Source: Desulfatiglandales bacterium
GTDB taxonomy: Bacteria > Desulfobacterota > DSM-4660 > Desulfatiglandales > Desulfatiglandaceae
Assembly: GCA_963666345.1 (NCBI GenBank)
Contig: OY762721.1
Coordinates: 3,488,001 to 3,552,000, forward strand
Direction of reading: 5' to 3'
Length of the DNA: 64,000 nucleotides
Of this stretch, positions 13,100-55,299 are shown in pieces. The translations under genes and the position numbers were made by a program. How positions within the stretch are numbered: the stretch's first letter is position 1; every line of letters begins with the position of its first letter. The notes beneath the pieces were generated by a model that did not search any database, was not told where the DNA came from, and saw only the letters and a list, made by a program, of their open reading frames with translations.

Positions 13100-13666
13100 A
13101 TGGGTTGGATAGGAGTAAAGGATTTGATGGTGCCACTTTCAGAATACGCAACCGTATCAGAGGATGCGACCCTTCGTGAGGCGGTTATGGCCCTTGAAAA
13201 GGCACAGGAAGAATTTGCCAGGACAGGGCATCTGTATCTGCACAGGGCAGTGCTCGTCTACAATAAGGCCGGGAAGATCGTGGGGAAGGTCAGCCAGCTC
13301 GATGTGTTGAGCGCGCTTGAGCCTAAATACAAGGAAATCAGTAACGGCAAGGGGATGTCCTACTACGGGTTCACGCAGAAATTCATAAGGTCGATGATGG
13401 ATCAGTACTCCCTGCTTGATAAGCCTCTTAACAATCTTTTGAGAAAGGCGTCGGAGCAACGGGTGAAAAATTTTGTCAGCAGGCCTACAGAGGGTGAATA
13501 TATAGAAGAAGACGCGTCTCTGGACAAGGCCATTCATCAGTTTGTAATCGGTCAGCATCAGTCACTTCTGGTGACAGGGCAAGATGAGATAGTCGGGATA
13601 CTCAGGCTTACGGATGTTTTTAATGCCATCTTTCAGGAGATAAAGGCGGACGAGGCAGGGGAATAG
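13100..13666 (+). CDS. CBS-domain protein
   Basis: VKDLMVPL..YATV..DATL..A, IVGILRLTDVF; GGAGG RBS. Confidence 0.82.
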   Translation: MGWIGVKDLMVPLSEYATVSEDATLREAVMALEKAQEEFARTGHLYLHRAVLVYNKAGKIVGKVSQLDVLSALEPKYKEISNGKGMSYYGFTQKFIRSMMDQYSLLDKPLNNLLRKASEQRVKNFVSRPTEGEYIEEDASLDKAIHQFVIGQHQSLLVTGQDEIVGILRLTDVFNAIFQEIKADEAGE

Positions 13667-13930
13667 GAGTCTCCCACTGTCCAACAGGTGATTAACAACC
13701 TCTGCAACATGAACCGCACTGCAAACGGTTTCCTGTAAAGCAATCAGTGCCACAGGCTAATTCTCATCAGAAAACGCCCTTCCCCGGTTTTGTGCCGTCG
13801 GCAAAAGAGAAGAAGAACAGGAGTCGTTGTTCTGAAAGCCGAATGGGCCGGGCCGGACAACACCTGCCGATCCGATATCTCGACCCTGAAAAATAAATGG
13901 ATTATCTCCACAAGAGTTGATCCAAATGAA

Positions 13931-13992
13931 GGTTTCTTTGCTCTGCTTACGCTCCGCTCAGTCCCACTGCTTCGCAGCGGGTTCCCGGTTTC
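13931..13992 (-). repeat. ~60-bp hairpin repeat, copy 2 (inverted), bounded by direct GGTTTC
   Basis: Reverse strand reads GAAACCGGGAACCCGC-[TGCGAAGCA]-GTGGGACTGAGCGGAGCGTAAGCAGAGCAAAGAAACC; absent from the equivalent site of copy B. Confidence 0.85.
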
Positions 13993-14029
13993 TCATGGAA
14001 GGGGTCAAGGGTTCTAGGGTTCGAGCGAA

Positions 14030-14340
14030 ATGCTTAAAAATTATAAAGAGTTAAACGTTCGGCAAAAATCGTTTACGCTTTGACCTTCCGAATCAGAAGA
14101 TCCGCTGTTTCCATAGCGTCGAATATCGCCTGAGGGTATGGGAGGGAAACGACTATAGCGTATGTGAGATTTCTCTATATTGCATATGGTTCAGTCTGTG
14201 AATTGGAAACCCGGGCCATGATATCAGGTGACCTGGGTTATGTGGAAAAAGACAGGCTTCAGCAATTAAGAGGGGAAATCGGGGATGTCGGGACAATGCT
14301 CAAAGCGATGATCAAATCCCTTGAAAGAAAACCCTTGAAA
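14030..14340 (+). pseudogene. Four-helix-bundle protein (23S rRNA IVP/TIGR02436-like) pseudogene
   Basis: MLKNYKELNV.QKS, then a deletion and frameshift, IRRSAVSIASNIA*GYGR (in-frame TGA at 14131), RFLYIAYGSVCELET. Confidence 0.85.
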
Positions 14341-14406
14341 CCGGGAACCCGCCCTGAGCTGGCCGAAGGGTGGGACTGCGCGAAGCGTAAGCGAAGCAAA
14401 GAATCC
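14337..14406 (+). repeat. ~60-bp hairpin repeat, copy 3
   Basis: GAAACCGGGAACCCGC-[CCTGAGCTGGCCGAAGG]-GTGGGACTGCGCGAAGCGTAAGCGAAGCAAAGAATCC; identical to 48503-48572. Confidence 0.9.
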
Positions 14407-14581
14407 TTGAATCCTGGAACCCTTGGACCCTTTCTCCCAACTAATTGGGAGCAGAACCAGATAAATTAATCTGGACATGAAGCGCTTTTGGAGATAGACA
14501 CGGCAACATGCTTGTCATAGGATATAACGTGTTATTATTGTGTTCTTTTTGATGGAGCTATATTTTTTTAAGGAGGAATAA

Positions 14582-16714
14582 ATGAGTGATATTGAGTCAA
14601 TCATAAATCCCAAATCGATAGCTATCGTAGGGGCCACAAACCGCCCCGGAAGCGTCGGTTTGGCAGTTTTCAAGAACCTGCTTCAGGCCGGATACAAGGG
14701 TGTGCTCTATCCAGTCAACCCGAAGGCAATGTCAATCCAGGGCGTCAAGAGTTATCCGAGGCTCGTAAGCATTCCCGACCCTGTTGATATGGCTGTTATT
14801 ATCGTCCCCTCCGAAAGGGTCGCCTCCGTTGTCGAGGAAGCGGCCTATAAGAAGATCAGGGGTTGTATCGTTATAACCGCGGGCTTCAAGGAGGTGGGAG
14901 GCCGGGGAATCGAACTGGAAAAAGAACTCAGGGAACTGGCCGCTAAACATGGCATTCGCCTGGTTGGTCCCAACTGTCTCGGTATAATAAATACCAATAA
15001 TCAGGTATGCATGAACGCAAGCTTTGCCCGCGTAATGCCTTCTCAGGGGAATATCGCCTTTATATCACAATCAGGGGCACTATGTACCTCGGTACTTGAT
15101 ATCGCCGCCGGTAAAAACATCGGATTTTCAAAATTTGTGAGCTTCGGCAACAAGACGGACGTAAACGAGGTCGATTTTTTGAGGTACCTTAAAGATGATC
15201 CGGATACGGATGTCATACTCCTCTACCTCGAGGACATAACCGAAGGCCGTGCCTTTATGGAGGTGTCAAGGCAGATTACCCTGGAAACGGGTAAACCGAT
15301 ACTGGCCCTGAAATCGGGAAGATCCGCCGAAGGTGCCAAGGCCGCAGCCTCTCACACCGGCTCTCTTGCAGGTTCGGACACAAGCTATGACGCCATTTTT
15401 GAGCAAAGCGGGATTCAGAGGGTGGAAGGAGTGACCGAGCTTTTCTACTATGCCCAGGCATTTTCCATGCAGCCGCTTCCCAAGGGAAGAAGGGTCGCTA
15501 TCGTTACAAATGCAGGGGGGCCTGGTATTATGGCCACGGACGCGGCCATAAGACACGGCCTGAAACTGGCCGAACTGTCCCGGAAGACAAAGGACAAACT
15601 GAAGGATCAGCTGCCTGATACCGCAAGCATTGCAAATCCGGTGGATGTCATAGGTGATGCCACTCATGATCGCTATGAGGCGGCTTTGAGGACCACCCTG
15701 ATGGATGACGGGGTGGATTGCGCCATTGTTATCCTTACTCCCCAGGCCATGACCGATATCCTTGAGACCGCCGAGATAGTCCCCCGGGTGGCAAAGGCCG
15801 TCAAAAAGCCTATCCTCTGCTCATTTATGGGGCTTGTTGATGTCTCGGAAGGGGTCAGATATCTTGCTCAAAACGGCATACCCAATTATGAGCTGCCGGA
15901 GGGCGCGGTCAGAAGCATGGCTGCCATGGTAAGATTCGCCGAAGATCTGGAGCCGCGCAGGTGGGAAAAAAGGGATTTCAAGGAAATCTCCGTTGACAAG
16001 GACCGGGCCACCCGGATCATAAAAGAAAAACTCACGGAAAAAACCGAATGCTATCTTCCTGAAAAGGACGCATCGGAGATCCTGAGCTGTTACGGGTTCC
16101 CCATGCTCAAGAGTTCCGTGGTGCCGGATATCTCGGGGCTTGAATCCGCGCTCAAAGAAATAGGCCTTCCGGTGGCGATGAAGATAGATTCGCCTGATAT
16201 AATTCACAAGTCGGACGCAGGAGGCGTCAGGCTCAAGATAAAGACCGTGGAGGAGGCGCGCAAGGCCTTTGAAGAGATAATCGAGAATGCGAAGGCATAC
16301 AGATCGGATGTGCGTATCACGGGAGTGCTTGTGGAGGAAATGGCTGAAAGCGGTATGGAGGCGATCCTGGGTGCTACGAGGGATCCCAATTTCGGGCCGA
16401 TGTGCATGTTCGGTCTTGGAGGCATATTCGTAGAGGCGATGAAGGATGTTACCTTCCGGCTGGCCCCTATGTGGGAATCGAGCGCAGAGGACATGATTCA
16501 ATCCATAAAGGCCTACAAGGTGCTGAAAGGCGTAAGGGGAAATCCGCCGTCCGATATCGAGGCCCTCAAGGATTGCATTCTGAGGCTGTCCCAGCTGGTT
16601 TCAGAGCACAATGAAATAAAGGAACTGGATATAAATCCTCTTATCATCTATTCGGAAGGAAAGGGGTGCAGGGTCGCGGATGCCCGCATATTGTTATCCA
16701 GGCCCGATTATTGA
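14582..16714 (+). CDS. ADP-forming acetate/acyl-CoA ligase (fused alpha-beta)
   Basis: PKSIAIVGA, YPVNP, GPNCLG, SQSGA, SHTGSLAG, TNAGGPG, NPVD, HKSDAGGV, ELDINPL. Confidence 0.9.
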   Translation: MSDIESIINPKSIAIVGATNRPGSVGLAVFKNLLQAGYKGVLYPVNPKAMSIQGVKSYPRLVSIPDPVDMAVIIVPSERVASVVEEAAYKKIRGCIVITAGFKEVGGRGIELEKELRELAAKHGIRLVGPNCLGIINTNNQVCMNASFARVMPSQGNIAFISQSGALCTSVLDIAAGKNIGFSKFVSFGNKTDVNEVDFLRYLKDDPDTDVILLYLEDITEGRAFMEVSRQITLETGKPILALKSGRSAEGAKAAASHTGSLAGSDTSYDAIFEQSGIQRVEGVTELFYYAQAFSMQPLPKGRRVAIVTNAGGPGIMATDAAIRHGLKLAELSRKTKDKLKDQLPDTASIANPVDVIGDATHDRYEAALRTTLMDDGVDCAIVILTPQAMTDILETAEIVPRVAKAVKKPILCSFMGLVDVSEGVRYLAQNGIPNYELPEGAVRSMAAMVRFAEDLEPRRWEKRDFKEISVDKDRATRIIKEKLTEKTECYLPEKDASEILSCYGFPMLKSSVVPDISGLESALKEIGLPVAMKIDSPDIIHKSDAGGVRLKIKTVEEARKAFEEIIENAKAYRSDVRITGVLVEEMAESGMEAILGATRDPNFGPMCMFGLGGIFVEAMKDVTFRLAPMWESSAEDMIQSIKAYKVLKGVRGNPPSDIEALKDCILRLSQLVSEHNEIKELDINPLIIYSEGKGCRVADARILLSRPDY

Positions 16715-47798: not shown

Positions 47799-48140
47799 AT
47801 TGAGATGACGTGCCGAATCAGTGAATTTGGGGTCGGTCTGAGATAACTCCATGAAATGACTTATAAAGAAGTCTGAAAAGGGCCAAAAATAAGGTCTATA
47901 TCGCCATTTTTTGATGCCGAAAAAGGCATTATAGGTTTGTCGCGGGGAACCACCGCTGTTTGCCACAAAAAAAGGGTTTAAGTCTGCTCTCGACCGTTGA
48001 AATTAAAATGAGGTACCGCAAAATCCATTACAGTGCGGTAAGCGGTATCATTGAAAGGGTGAAACAAACTTAGATCATTTCCAAAAGAGTTGGTCTAAAT
48101 GAAGGTTTCGAGTGGTCAAGGGGCCGCGGGTTCGAGTGAA

Positions 48141-48506
48141 AAGCTTAAAGATCATAGGCAGCTAAACGTTAGACAAAAATCGCATACACCTTGTTTGCAT
48201 ATGTATGAAGGAGTTAAACGTTTTTTTAAAGATGAGCAATACTATTTTACCTCCCTAATCAGAAGATCCGCTGTTTTCATATCAAGGGACACCGCCCAAG
48301 GGTATGGGAGAAAAACGGCTATAGAGTATGCGCGATTTCTCTATATTGCATATGGTTCAGTCTGTGAATTGGAAACCCGGGACATAACATCAGCTGAGCT
48401 GGGTTATTTAAAAGAAAAAAGGCTTTGAAAATTAAGAAGAAAAACAGGGTATGTCGGGGCAATGTTCAAAGAAATGATCAAATCCCTGGAAAGAAAACCC
48501 TTGAAA
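48141..48506 (+). pseudogene. Four-helix-bundle protein pseudogene
   Basis: Start codon lost, LNV.QKS, IRRSAV, GYGRKT, RFLYIAYGSVCELET, internal TGA at 48426. Confidence 0.82.
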
Positions 48507-48572
48507 CCGGGAACCCGCCCTGAGCTGGCCGAAGGGTGGGACTGCGCGAAGCGTAAGCGAAGCAAAGAATCC
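48503..48572 (+). repeat. ~60-bp hairpin repeat, copy 4
   Basis: Identical to 14337-14406. Confidence 0.9.
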
Positions 48573-48735
48573 TTGAATCCTTGGGTCCTTGGCCACTCTT
48601 CGACAACTAAGTTGGAGAAAAACCAAAAATAATAATATGGGGCAAATAATTTGATATGTAAAAGGAAGAATTCGCCAAAAATATTGACAAAAATCAAAGG
48701 CAGACTTGACTTCCAAAAAGAATAGAGAGGAAAAA

Positions 48736-50344: not shown

Positions 50345-50600
50345 GGCATCGGGGGGGGCTTGAAACTTGAATTATCTCGATAGAAGGGGGCAGGACTGCT
50401 GTTGATTCTTACCTGAAGGGGCTCAGCGTGATCTTTGTTTGAAGTTAATATAATTGACCGCAGCCTTAGACCCATTCCAGTGCGGTAAGCGGTATCATCG
50501 AAAGGGTAAAACAAAAAATAATAACGGACAAATATTTTGATATATAAGAAAGAATTAGCCAAAATATCGGCAAGAAGTCTAGGGCAGACCTGCCCCCAAA
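50345..50600. repeat. GGGGTCAGGTCT-type repeat plus uninterrupted (empty-site) element with inverted ends
   Basis: GGGGGCAGGACTG (50386-98) and CAGACCTGCCCCC (50585-97); upstream CTTGAAACTTGA..CTCGATAGAAGGGG also occurs at 55715. Confidence 0.7.
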
Positions 50601-50630
50601 CAGTCACCTTTTTTATCAGCCCGCCCTTTT

Positions 50631-53100: not shown

Positions 53101-53256
53101 TCAACCCATGGGTTCAGATAAATATCCCTTTTTACATGCATTCCGGCCGACGGGTAAAGAGCAAAATCGATTGGAACGGTACCCTGAACAAAAGGATTCG
53201 GCAGTGATGCCTGTGGTCGGGGGGCATATAGCGTGAGGAAAGATGAATAAGATTTT

Positions 53257-54605
53257 GGTTCATCCGGCAAATGCCGGGGTAATAATATTGGTTGGTGAAT
53301 TTACTGTAAAAAGCCATAGAAAAATCGTCGCCAATGGGTTATCTCGTTTCTGAGCTACGACACTACAGACACGAGAGGAGACCGACAATGGCGACGACAA
53401 GCTTTTTGTATCACACAATGGGCCTTAAAGGCTACCGACACATTCGTACCGAGTATCGTTATGGTGTTGTCTTTTACCATGTAAAACTGAGGAACACCAA
53501 ACGCAGGTGCAGAAGATGCGGTGCCAGGTGGCGTTATCTCAGAAAAGCAGGAAAATTTACCAGGGTTTTTCATGCCTTGCCCATTGGCAGAAAGCCACAG
53601 AAGATAGTGCTTCATGGGCATGAACAATACTGCCGGCATTGTGGACGTATATTGAGGGAACCCATTAAATTTGCCAGAGGGAAAAAGCGTTCTTTGAGAT
53701 GTTTTGATCGATTTATCGTTGATCTGTGCACTATTGCTACCATCAAGGCAGTGGCTGCGTTCCTTGGGGTTGGATGGGATCTGGTTAAAGGCATCTTCAA
53801 GGAAGATCTTAAAAAGCGCTTGAGCAGACGAAAGCTGAGAAGAGTCCGCTACATTGCGGTTGATGAGTTTGCTCTTCGAAAGGGGCATCATTACATGACT
53901 GTGGTCATGGATCTTGAAACCGGACAGATCCTTTATGCTGAGAAGGGCAAGGATGCACAGGCCTTGATCCCTTTTCTCAAAACGCTGCGCAGGAGAAGAA
54001 TAAAACTCATGGCAGTGGCAATGGACATGTCCCCGGCCTACATGAATGCTGTTAAGGAAGTATTCCCCAATGTTGATATCGTACACGATCCTTACCATGT
54101 GGTGGTTAATGTCAACAAGGCTATTGATGAAACCAGGAAAAATATTTACCGCACCATGACAGGCAAGCAGCGTGGCATCATTAAAGGATCGAGGTTTTTG
54201 CTGCTCAGACCGCTAGAGGCTTTAAGTGAGGCCTCACTTTCAAAGCTTTCTGCTATTATGGAAATCAATGAGCCGCTGTATAAAGCATATATACTGAAAG
54301 AAGAACTTCGCTGGTTCTGGAATCTACCGAATGCATGGTTAGGTGAGCAATTCTTGGATAACTGGATCAAGGAAGCATACGAAACAGGTATCAAAAGCTT
54401 CATAAAGCTGGCTGATTCACTGCTGCGACACAAACCAGGTTTGTTATCATATTTTGCTCACCGTATCTCCACTGGTCCACTTGAGGGCCTTAACAACAAA
54501 ATCAAAGTGCTCAAACGACAAGCATATGGTTTCAGAGACAACGAGTATTTTAAACTACGTCTCTACTTCTTACATAATGACACCCCGGCATTTGCCGGAT
54601 GAACC
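53257..54605 (+). mobile_element. Intact ISL3-family insertion sequence
   Basis: Perfect 24-bp inverted repeats GGTTCATCCGGCAAATGCCGGGGT; perfect 8-bp target duplication AAGATTTT (53249-56, 54606-13). Confidence 0.95.
53388..54602 (+). CDS. ISL3-family DDE transposase
   Basis: Zinc finger CRRC..CRHC, IAVDEFALRKGHHY, AMDM, DPYHV, STGPLEGLNNKIK..KR.AYGFR; GAGGAG RBS before ATG 53388. Confidence 0.93.
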   Translation: MATTSFLYHTMGLKGYRHIRTEYRYGVVFYHVKLRNTKRRCRRCGARWRYLRKAGKFTRVFHALPIGRKPQKIVLHGHEQYCRHCGRILREPIKFARGKKRSLRCFDRFIVDLCTIATIKAVAAFLGVGWDLVKGIFKEDLKKRLSRRKLRRVRYIAVDEFALRKGHHYMTVVMDLETGQILYAEKGKDAQALIPFLKTLRRRRIKLMAVAMDMSPAYMNAVKEVFPNVDIVHDPYHVVVNVNKAIDETRKNIYRTMTGKQRGIIKGSRFLLLRPLEALSEASLSKLSAIMEINEPLYKAYILKEELRWFWNLPNAWLGEQFLDNWIKEAYETGIKSFIKLADSLLRHKPGLLSYFAHRISTGPLEGLNNKIKVLKRQAYGFRDNEYFKLRLYFLHNDTPAFAG

Positions 54606-55299
54606 AAGATTTTTATCCTTCTTATGGTTACTGTTATTCTTGGTCTGTCCGATGTCTCTTATGCTGAGAGTTATTTGCCGGATGAGCCCGGGGTTGAGCG
54701 CCATGAATCCATAGGTAAGCAAATGATCGATTCCTATGCTCAAGCTTTGGGAACCTGGAAGACAGCGGAAGATATTAATAAATGGGTCGGCGGTAGTTTT
54801 ACATACGATAGGAAAAGGGCGATTAAGTTTTCTTCTGCCCGGAAAAACAAGAAAAAGGGGGTCCCGGTTTACGAGCCGTCCGAATTTTTTGTTACAAAGG
54901 CCGGGGTTTGTGTCGATCTTGCTTGTTTTGGCGTTGAAACACTCAAAAAAATTGATCCTCATAGTGATCCGAATTATCTCATGATCAAATTCGTTCCGAT
55001 ACAAATAAATGGACATACGTTTCGATTGCACTGGTTGGTGAGTTTTAAAAAGGATGGCAAGAAATACTTTTTTTGTGACTCAAAACGTCCCGGTTTCCTT
55101 GCAGGTCCCTACGATAGCACTCAGGTCTTCATCAATGAATATGAACAATACAGGGGCCGAAACATTGTCGCGTACCGCGAGTTGAAATCCTACGAAAAGA
55201 AGAGGAAACCAAAATCAGTGAAAGGAAAAAGGCCGGAAGACCGCGCACCTGATTAGATCCGCCGGCTACAAAAAGATTATCCATGATGCAGGAGGTCCT

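Follow-up and report, generated by a model that had tools for sequence, protein, structure and literature searches.

The window analysed here, a stretch of 64,000 nucleotides, comprises positions 3488001-3552000 of the single-contig 4.16-Mb genome of a Desulfatiglandales bacterium. It contains two copies, A (13899-14458) and B (48072-48624), of a short unit built around a gene of the four-helix-bundle type (PF05635/TIGR02436). With high confidence we assign copy A as a transposon copy, now decayed, that is non-autonomous and belongs to the ISL3 family of insertion sequences (IS), i.e., a miniature transposable element with inverted repeats (MITE) or mobile insertion cassette (MIC). In such elements, IS-type ends enclose a passenger gene or no gene at all and the unit is moved in trans, as exemplified by IS231/MIC231 of Bacillus cereus. 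PF05635/TIGR02436 genes themselves are small, of obscure function, and oddly multicopy and patchy in their occurrence. A sequence-only reading of the window had already proposed a non-autonomous passenger cassette of the ISL3 type, and this proposal is supported by 49 units in the genome, their target-site duplications, empty sites and an ISL3 element with matching ends. Positions below refer to the window unless the genome is named or the number exceeds its length.

Copies A and B align end to end and the homology breaks off precisely at both ends, confirming the collinear units with common end points that had been claimed. In the alignment, copy A shows a 62-column insertion in the left arm and a 55-bp deletion within the gene. 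Its right end reads GGTTCTGCTCCCAATTAGTTGG inward and the unit is flanked by AAATAAAT and AGATAAAT, identical in 7/8 positions, just as described before. Both copies are, however, pseudogenes, A by the 55-bp internal deletion and a stop codon and B by a stop codon, and the flanks of copy B match in only 4/8 positions.

A search of the genome with copies A and B (blastn) gave 189 and 144 matches, respectively, forming 92 clusters, 31 of which measure at least 350 bp. Aligned with 120-bp flanks, these 31 long copies share sharp boundaries, beginning with GGATCATCTCCAAAAGAGTTGG... on the left and closing with ...CAACTAAGTTGGAGAAGAACC on the right. By a scan with the end motif 46 units of 105-603 bp were paired, and three more were added manually because their ends missed the scan pattern, resulting in 49 inverted-repeat-bounded units. 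An additional end pair from the scan at 1933 bp was spurious and was discarded. From the outside to the inside, the units consist of a 22-bp end with a palindrome, an array of ~8-bp repeats (GGGTCAAG/GGATTCAA type), the four-helix gene, the inverted array and the other end. No transposase gene was found within the units (105-603 bp), the sole gene being the PF05635 open reading frame (ORF) or its remnant.

The 8-mers flanking the 49 units are identical (8/8) in 25 cases, agree in 7/8 positions in 14 and in at most 6/8 in the other 10. In two sets of controls with the 8-mers shifted by 8 bp, 0/49 units reached 8/8. The perfect duplications have an A+T content of 83.5% in comparison to 52% genome-wide. 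Shared end points and 8-bp duplications as noted at copy A thus recur elsewhere in the genome. Had the copies been made by segmental duplication or repeat recombination, the flanking 8-mers would be chance matches in AT-rich DNA. The ten units without a good duplication fit this idea, and so do the ~10 bp of left flank that copy B has in common with a truncated copy at genome 2662070-2662653, which look like a junction duplication. The flanks of the copies diverge beyond the 8-mer, however, and no shifted control matched the 25 perfect cases. Together with the nested empty sites described below, the 8-mer controls already refute this explanation for most copies, and we assign it a negligible probability.

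For the detection of empty sites, the left and right flanks of every unit were queried separately against the genome and adjoining matches were sought. The cassette at genome 2900311-2900756, bearing the duplication AGATTTCT, is nested in a sibling element, and in ten uninterrupted siblings of this host the flanks are contiguous, with AGATTTCT or a variant of 1-3 nt present once each. Unit 3121593-3121978 is inserted in a short family member. The intact relative of the latter, at 2689159-2689426, carries the site once, and an uninterrupted paralog of unit 3995344-3995895 is located near 1380743. The empty sites with a single 8-mer foreseen by the sequence-only reading were accordingly found among paralogs within the same genome.

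Pairs of units at different sites are up to 100% (346 bp), 99.2% and 97% identical, with a median pair at 83%. Two units being completely identical, something must have moved or copied them recently. The members of the 99.2% identical pair contain stop codons and those of the 100% identical pair are without a four-helix gene; since near-identical copies have broken genes or none, mobility needs no intact gene in cis. Shorter siblings (~320-460 bp, 346 bp and 105-314 bp) have retained the arrays, and in those of ~320-460 bp and 346 bp the four-helix gene is still represented by its first and last codons, for which reason they are read as deletion derivatives of the cassette.

A transposase-bearing element with the cassette ends was found in metagenome contigs. 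The scan for GGTTCTTCTCCNNNTTAGTTG revealed at least 120 stretches, of which 80 loci were examined; in four of these (L035, L053, L083 and L097) a second inverted end lies 1345-1348 bp away. The element L035:476-1821 measures 1346 bp and contains an open 400-aa ORF with the domains Zn_ribbon_ISL3, HTH_Tnp_ISL3 and DDE_Tnp_ISL3 (E 2e-69), scoring 325 bits on the NCBIfam ISL3 equivalog NF033550 (cut-off 180). L053, L083 and L097 are relatives of this element of 1345-1348 bp. L035:476-1821 is thus an instance of what had been postulated, an ISL3 transposase with these ends on both sides. Among the loci listed, the best matches of the cassette left ends are to the left inverted repeat (IRL) of L097 (18-20/22) and those of the right ends to the right inverted repeat (IRR) of L083, L053 or L035 (18-21/22); one end of a sibling is identical to the IRR of L035 (22/22). 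With these identities, the asymmetric cassette ends mirror the IRL/IRR asymmetry of the L035-type lineage. The similarity of a cassette right end to the IRR of L083 (24/29) spans the last codons and the stop of the transposase (AAC TAA), a terminus that lies inside the right repeat in the cognate elements. Moreover, the four-helix gene in the cassette has the orientation of the transposase in the cognate ISL3.

As a side observation, L053, L083 and L097 (73-85% identical) have a common A8 run ~800 nt from the IRL, and the transposase frame is broken at the same codon in all three; L035 has no A8 run and an open frame. Retention of the frame break in diverged copies suggests programmed slippage and not a sequencing error.

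The genome harbours one ISL3 transposase of its own, in three copies. The resident copy in the window (53257-54605, plus strand) is 1349 bp long, encodes a 422-aa transposase and is flanked by the 8-bp duplication AAGATTTT at 53249-53256 and 54606-54613. It starts with GGTTCATCCGGCAAATGCCGG, all three genomic copies start with GGTTCATC, and 8-bp AT-rich duplications occur at 3/3; the start, sub-terminal palindrome and duplication quoted for this element by the earlier reading were correct. The transposase gene terminates inside the right inverted repeat (TGA within ...GCCGGATGAACC; 54580-54605). In comparison with the consensus cassette ends, the resident ends agree in 7/8 of the outermost bases (6/8 for copy A) and in just 3-6/14 at positions 9-22. 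Any cassette end matches the resident ISL3 in 9-13/22 positions versus 18-22/22 for the ends of the cognate lineage, which fits the suggestion that the partner is another ISL3.

Despite these differences, the resident element could move the cassette by cross-mobilisation, taking the place of the missing cognate lineage. No other ISL3 transposase was found in the genome, and the resident one was probably active recently, as two of the three copies are identical; it generates 8-bp AT-rich duplications, and the cassette has the outermost bases and a sub-terminal palindrome in common with it. The 100% and 99.2% identical units imply recent movement in a genome in which the cognate enzyme was not found. 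Nevertheless, we consider this explanation unlikely. The ends disagree beyond the outermost bases, resident and L035 transposases are only 33% identical, and the relatives L009 (66% identity to the resident ISL3) and L010 (60%) have retained GGTTCATCCGG-type ends, so that the end sequence tracks the transposase lineage. The comparison of ends makes the resident ISL3 a candidate cross-mobiliser rather than the cognate element. L009, L010, L012 and the ISL3 elements of two related genomes (G005, G015) were also tried as partner and rejected, their ends being unlike those of the cassette.

Several findings weigh against mobilisation by the L035-type lineage. No cognate transposase was detected in this genome, where tblastn yielded only the three resident ISL3 copies, at 33% identity, and two units are nonetheless 100% identical. 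In 60 relatives no homolog above 36% identity was found; as these are mostly draft assemblies, it has to be called not found rather than absent. Of the IS copies in metagenome contigs, three have both flanks (L035, L083, L097), and a matching 8-bp duplication was present in 0/3, which may be due to chimeric assembly across the repeat. Copy B and nine other units have poor duplications (at most 6/8). Finally, no transposition event was observed: the site of copy A is filled in 4/4 public runs (three marine-sediment metagenomes and one 'organism A' run; contigs compared to 13300-15000), where flank contigs enter the element from both sides without differences and no joint skips the whole of copy A.

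An autonomous copy was likewise not found in the genome, since no end pair 1-3.5 kb apart encloses a transposase. Among the matches listed, the cognate lineage is confined to metagenome contigs, apart from ends at contig edges in the relative G028. That assembly contains at least 18 IS-type ends, all at contig edges, with the interior missing; all 13 matches of the repeat examined for its interior are located at contig edges as well, and no metagenome contig was matched by an exact search with 27 nt. For the insertion site of copy A, the best ortholog of the neighbouring ligase gene among 40 relatives (G016, 71% identity) has no CBS-domain gene within 1.5 kb upstream, nor has the one in G019 (64%), synteny being lost.

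On balance we favour movement by a transposase of the L035-type lineage. The 22-bp cassette ends represent the left and right inverted repeats of the 1.35-kb ISL3 lineage, and the four-helix-bundle gene, enclosed by the inverted ~8-bp arrays, replaces the transposase in the same orientation. An ISL3 transposase acting in trans would bind both ends, carry the unit to AT-rich sites and duplicate 8 bp there. The L035-type lineage probably moved the copies; it would then have been present formerly in this bacterial lineage and lost since, and the four-helix gene presumably rides as cargo. The alternatives are a recent loss of the cognate element and cross-mobilisation of the units by the resident ISL3.

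The cassette is not confined to this genome. The end motif (at most 2 mismatches) occurs in 12/60 relatives from several families of the order, and a reversed-pattern control gave no match in any of the 61 genomes. The 80 metagenome loci examined, out of at least 120, yielded 75 distinct ends. Repeat arrays adjoin 38 of these and 11 are of the IS type by pattern, with a few more assigned to that type by eye; among the loci listed, 25 continue otherwise and one is too short. Both ends could be placed for 24 metagenome units among the loci listed, and 9/23 scorable ones have perfect duplications. Two of the loci listed, L027 and L084, contain intact four-helix genes of 123 aa. In the relative G058, contigs break within four-helix-type arms. 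Cassette units disrupt short-read assemblies, with contigs ending inside them in two relatives and four public runs.

Three further metagenome loci (L073, L022 and L059) were assigned as minimal forms of the element. In one form, two overlapping ends make up a seemingly perfect palindrome of 31 bp, GGTTCTTCTCCAATTTAGTTGGAGAAGAACC; others are units of ~55 bp that comprise barely more than two ends.

PF05635 matches occur 36 times in the genome, 28 of them inside cassette units (27 units). Within the units, a full-length four-helix gene without stop is present in one copy only, at genome 3089145-3089459 (minus strand, 120 aa), and the others exhibit stops or internal deletions. The intact copy scores 136.5 bits on PF05635 (cut-off 33.8) and 136.2 bits on TIGR02436 (cut-off 24) and shows a sequence match to PDB 2gsc (XCC0516) with E 4e-28. 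Read through one TGA each, copies A and B still reach 72.1 and 70.9 bits on PF05635. For intact genes, the ratio of nonsynonymous to synonymous substitution rates (dN/dS) is 0.07-0.21 in four of six pairs with unsaturated dS, one of the four ratios being unreliable because its dS is 3.6. These ratios indicate that the intact four-helix genes evolve under constraint by purifying selection.

Such constraint would be expected if the four-helix protein itself were required for movement, one intact copy serving the others in trans. The persistence of one full-length open copy is compatible with this idea, as is the orientation of the gene, which equals that of the replaced transposase; besides, the gene-plus-array module is found inside these ends more often than any other content (38 of the 75 above, among the metagenome loci listed). 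The cassette ends and the 8-bp duplication belong, however, to a DDE ISL3 transposase, and gene-less sibling units have equally good duplications. The 120-aa protein is not known to have a catalytic domain and none was detected, PF05635 and TIGR02436 alone being found together with a sub-threshold match to Avd. A requirement for the protein is therefore improbable in our view, next to a cassette carried by an ISL3 transposase.

The remaining 8/36 PF05635 genes are located outside any cassette unit, and no ISL3-type ends were seen at these eight. Seven of them (genome 1627755, 1631805, 1633108, 1645777, 2066743, 2953963 and 2965270) are bracketed by inverted arrays, either of another short word or, at 2066743, of the cassette's own word. 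The array word differs at most of them and belongs to the GGAACGCG, TTGATTGA, CGGTAATC and CTAAAGTGA types; GGGTTCAA was observed as another array word at four-helix genes outside ISL3-type ends. Three of the outside genes lie within 6 kb (1627755-1633266). With eight genes outside the units, the module of four-helix gene and arrays also occurs independently of the ISL3 vehicle. The earlier claim that the cassette explains the scattered multicopy occurrence of these genes was hence partly borne out: the 28 matches inside units fit it and the eight outside do not. What the ISL3 vehicle accounts for is the number of copies in this genome; it does not explain how the PF05635 family is distributed in general.

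Copy A is inserted between a CBS-domain gene on one side and the gene of an ADP-forming acyl-CoA ligase on the other. Its left target-site duplication occupies 13891-13898 and the right one, with which it pairs in 7/8 positions, 14459-14466. The left terminal inverted repeat (TIR), GGATTATCTCCACAAGAGTTGA (13899-13920, plus strand), is IRL-like, with 18/22 matches to the IRL of L097 and 9/22 to the resident ISL3; the right one (14437-14458, minus strand) is IRR-like, with 20/22 matches to the IRR of L035. The left array (13999-14025, plus strand) is composed of ~8-bp tandem repeats, AAGGGGTC AAGGGTTC TAGGGTTC GAG, and is 81% complementary to 14406-14432. The right array (14402-14432, plus strand) consists of ~8-bp tandem repeats inverted with respect to the left ones. 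Between them, the decayed four-helix-bundle gene at 14030-14340 (plus strand) covers profile positions 28-105 with one in-frame TGA.

In the RNA folds predicted, the left and right arrays pair into an extended stem that encloses the gene, and a separate hairpin is formed by each end. The z-scores of the predicted folds are -5.17 for the intact copy and -6.10 for copy A, and 0/100 shuffles were equally stable.

Nested in the arms of copy A is a 56-nt hairpin-forming repeat, found by repeat searches at 13937-13992 (plus strand) in the left arm and, inverted, at 14337-14401 (minus strand) in the right arm. It has the core CCCACTGC-TTCG-GCAGCGGG as well as a second loop variant. In the genome it occurs in 34 copies of at least 40 nt, 20 within cassettes and 14 elsewhere, nearly always with GGATTC of the 8-mer arrays on one side and their AAGG on the other, and with the terminus GGTTTC. 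At genome 2020855, a direct CCCGGTTTC repeat is located on both sides. The repeat resembles a tiny insertion element in its own right, for which the arrays serve as target.

Copy B (48072-48624, plus strand) lacks the hairpin insert in its left arm. The DNA around it (47960-48070 and 48625-48720) belongs to a repeated intergenic segment also present at 50440-50620 and genome 852365-852513. The segment contains a conserved hairpin (ACCGCA...TGCGGT), lies upstream of genes for small glycine-rich membrane proteins, and is cassette-free in at least two paralogs. In the diverged cassette-free paralog at 50472-50573 (plus strand), the flanks of copy B are contiguous, with the junction in an A-rich stretch exact to ~3 nt. 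As the junction is blurred by the divergence, this paralog was dropped as a clean empty site for copy B.

Compared to known MICs and MITEs, the cassette shares TIRs (nearly) identical to those of an autonomous IS, the lack of a transposase, a duplication typical of the family, high copy number and deleted derivatives. It differs in that its IS family is ISL3 and that the passenger is always a PF05635 gene within inverted 8-bp arrays. In addition, the gene-less MITEs here look like deletions of the cassette and not of the IS, since the first and last codons of the cassette gene are kept. With ISL3-family IS (DDE_Tnp_ISL3, NF033550) it has in common the GG(T/A)TC(T/A)TC starts and the 8-bp AT-rich duplication, and the right end corresponds to a repeat that contains the transposase stop in resident and cognate elements alike; the cassette itself is without a transposase. 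A distant sequence resemblance to Avd of diversity-generating retroelements was also observed (Pfam bAvd 26.1 bits, NCBIfam Avd NF033474 25.5 bits), although both values are below the curated cut-offs of 40 and 80, respectively.

A further parallel is offered by Coxiella burnetii, whose 23S rRNA intervening sequence (IVS) carries S23p, a gene of the PF05635/TIGR02436 type. According to the accessible part of a report on this IVS, tandem heptamers are located just upstream of S23p, the IVS is excised by RNase III and its ORF decays (PMC4990558). There, the authors describe it as unclear how IVSs arose, refer to transposon hypotheses (Burgin 1990; Ralph and McClelland 1993) and credit Ralph and McClelland 1993 with the view that the IVS protein is a component needed for mobility (PMC4990558). 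Cassette and Coxiella IVS, as described there, agree in the PF05635 gene family, in short tandem repeats upstream (heptamers in Coxiella, octamers here), in a decaying ORF and in an inverted-repeat stem around it, which is predicted only in the case of the cassette. In contrast to the IVS, copy A lies outside an rRNA gene, and it has ISL3 ends and target duplications, features unreported for the IVS in that part of the source. No description of a four-helix cassette with ISL3 ends was found in the literature searched, which covers few of the subscription journals. The terms 'ISL3', 'four helix' and 'passenger' are absent from the main text of a 2024 survey of prokaryotic MITEs (PMC11602168).

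The four-helix gene and its arrays might be more than a chance passenger, namely the original core from which a widespread line of ISL3-dependent cassettes descends, which would provide a route for the scattering of S23p and a source of 23S IVSs; we offer this as a speculative and rather doubtful reading. Under it, purifying selection would preserve the gene in master copies, the short MITEs without it would be deletion products, and S23p modules landing in an rRNA operon would become 23S intervening sequences. On this reading, the four-helix protein or the array hairpin may also contribute to the propagation or expression of the cassette.

For a PF05635 gene, the cassette provides a documented vehicle with defined ends, duplications, empty sites, recent copies and a transposase family, accounting for 28/36 copies here. 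Two ideas become testable, namely that S23p modules spread as hitchhikers of ISL3 transposases and that this could be how intervening sequences begin. In annotation, decayed transposon cargo accounts for dozens of the genes called 'four helix bundle protein' in such genomes.

One larger arrangement was noted at genome 2041357-2043949, where a 418-aa membrane-protein ORF and a partial cassette lie between two inverted family ends separated by 2.6 kb. Either neighbouring elements have been paired here by chance, or the ends form a composite that could move a host gene.

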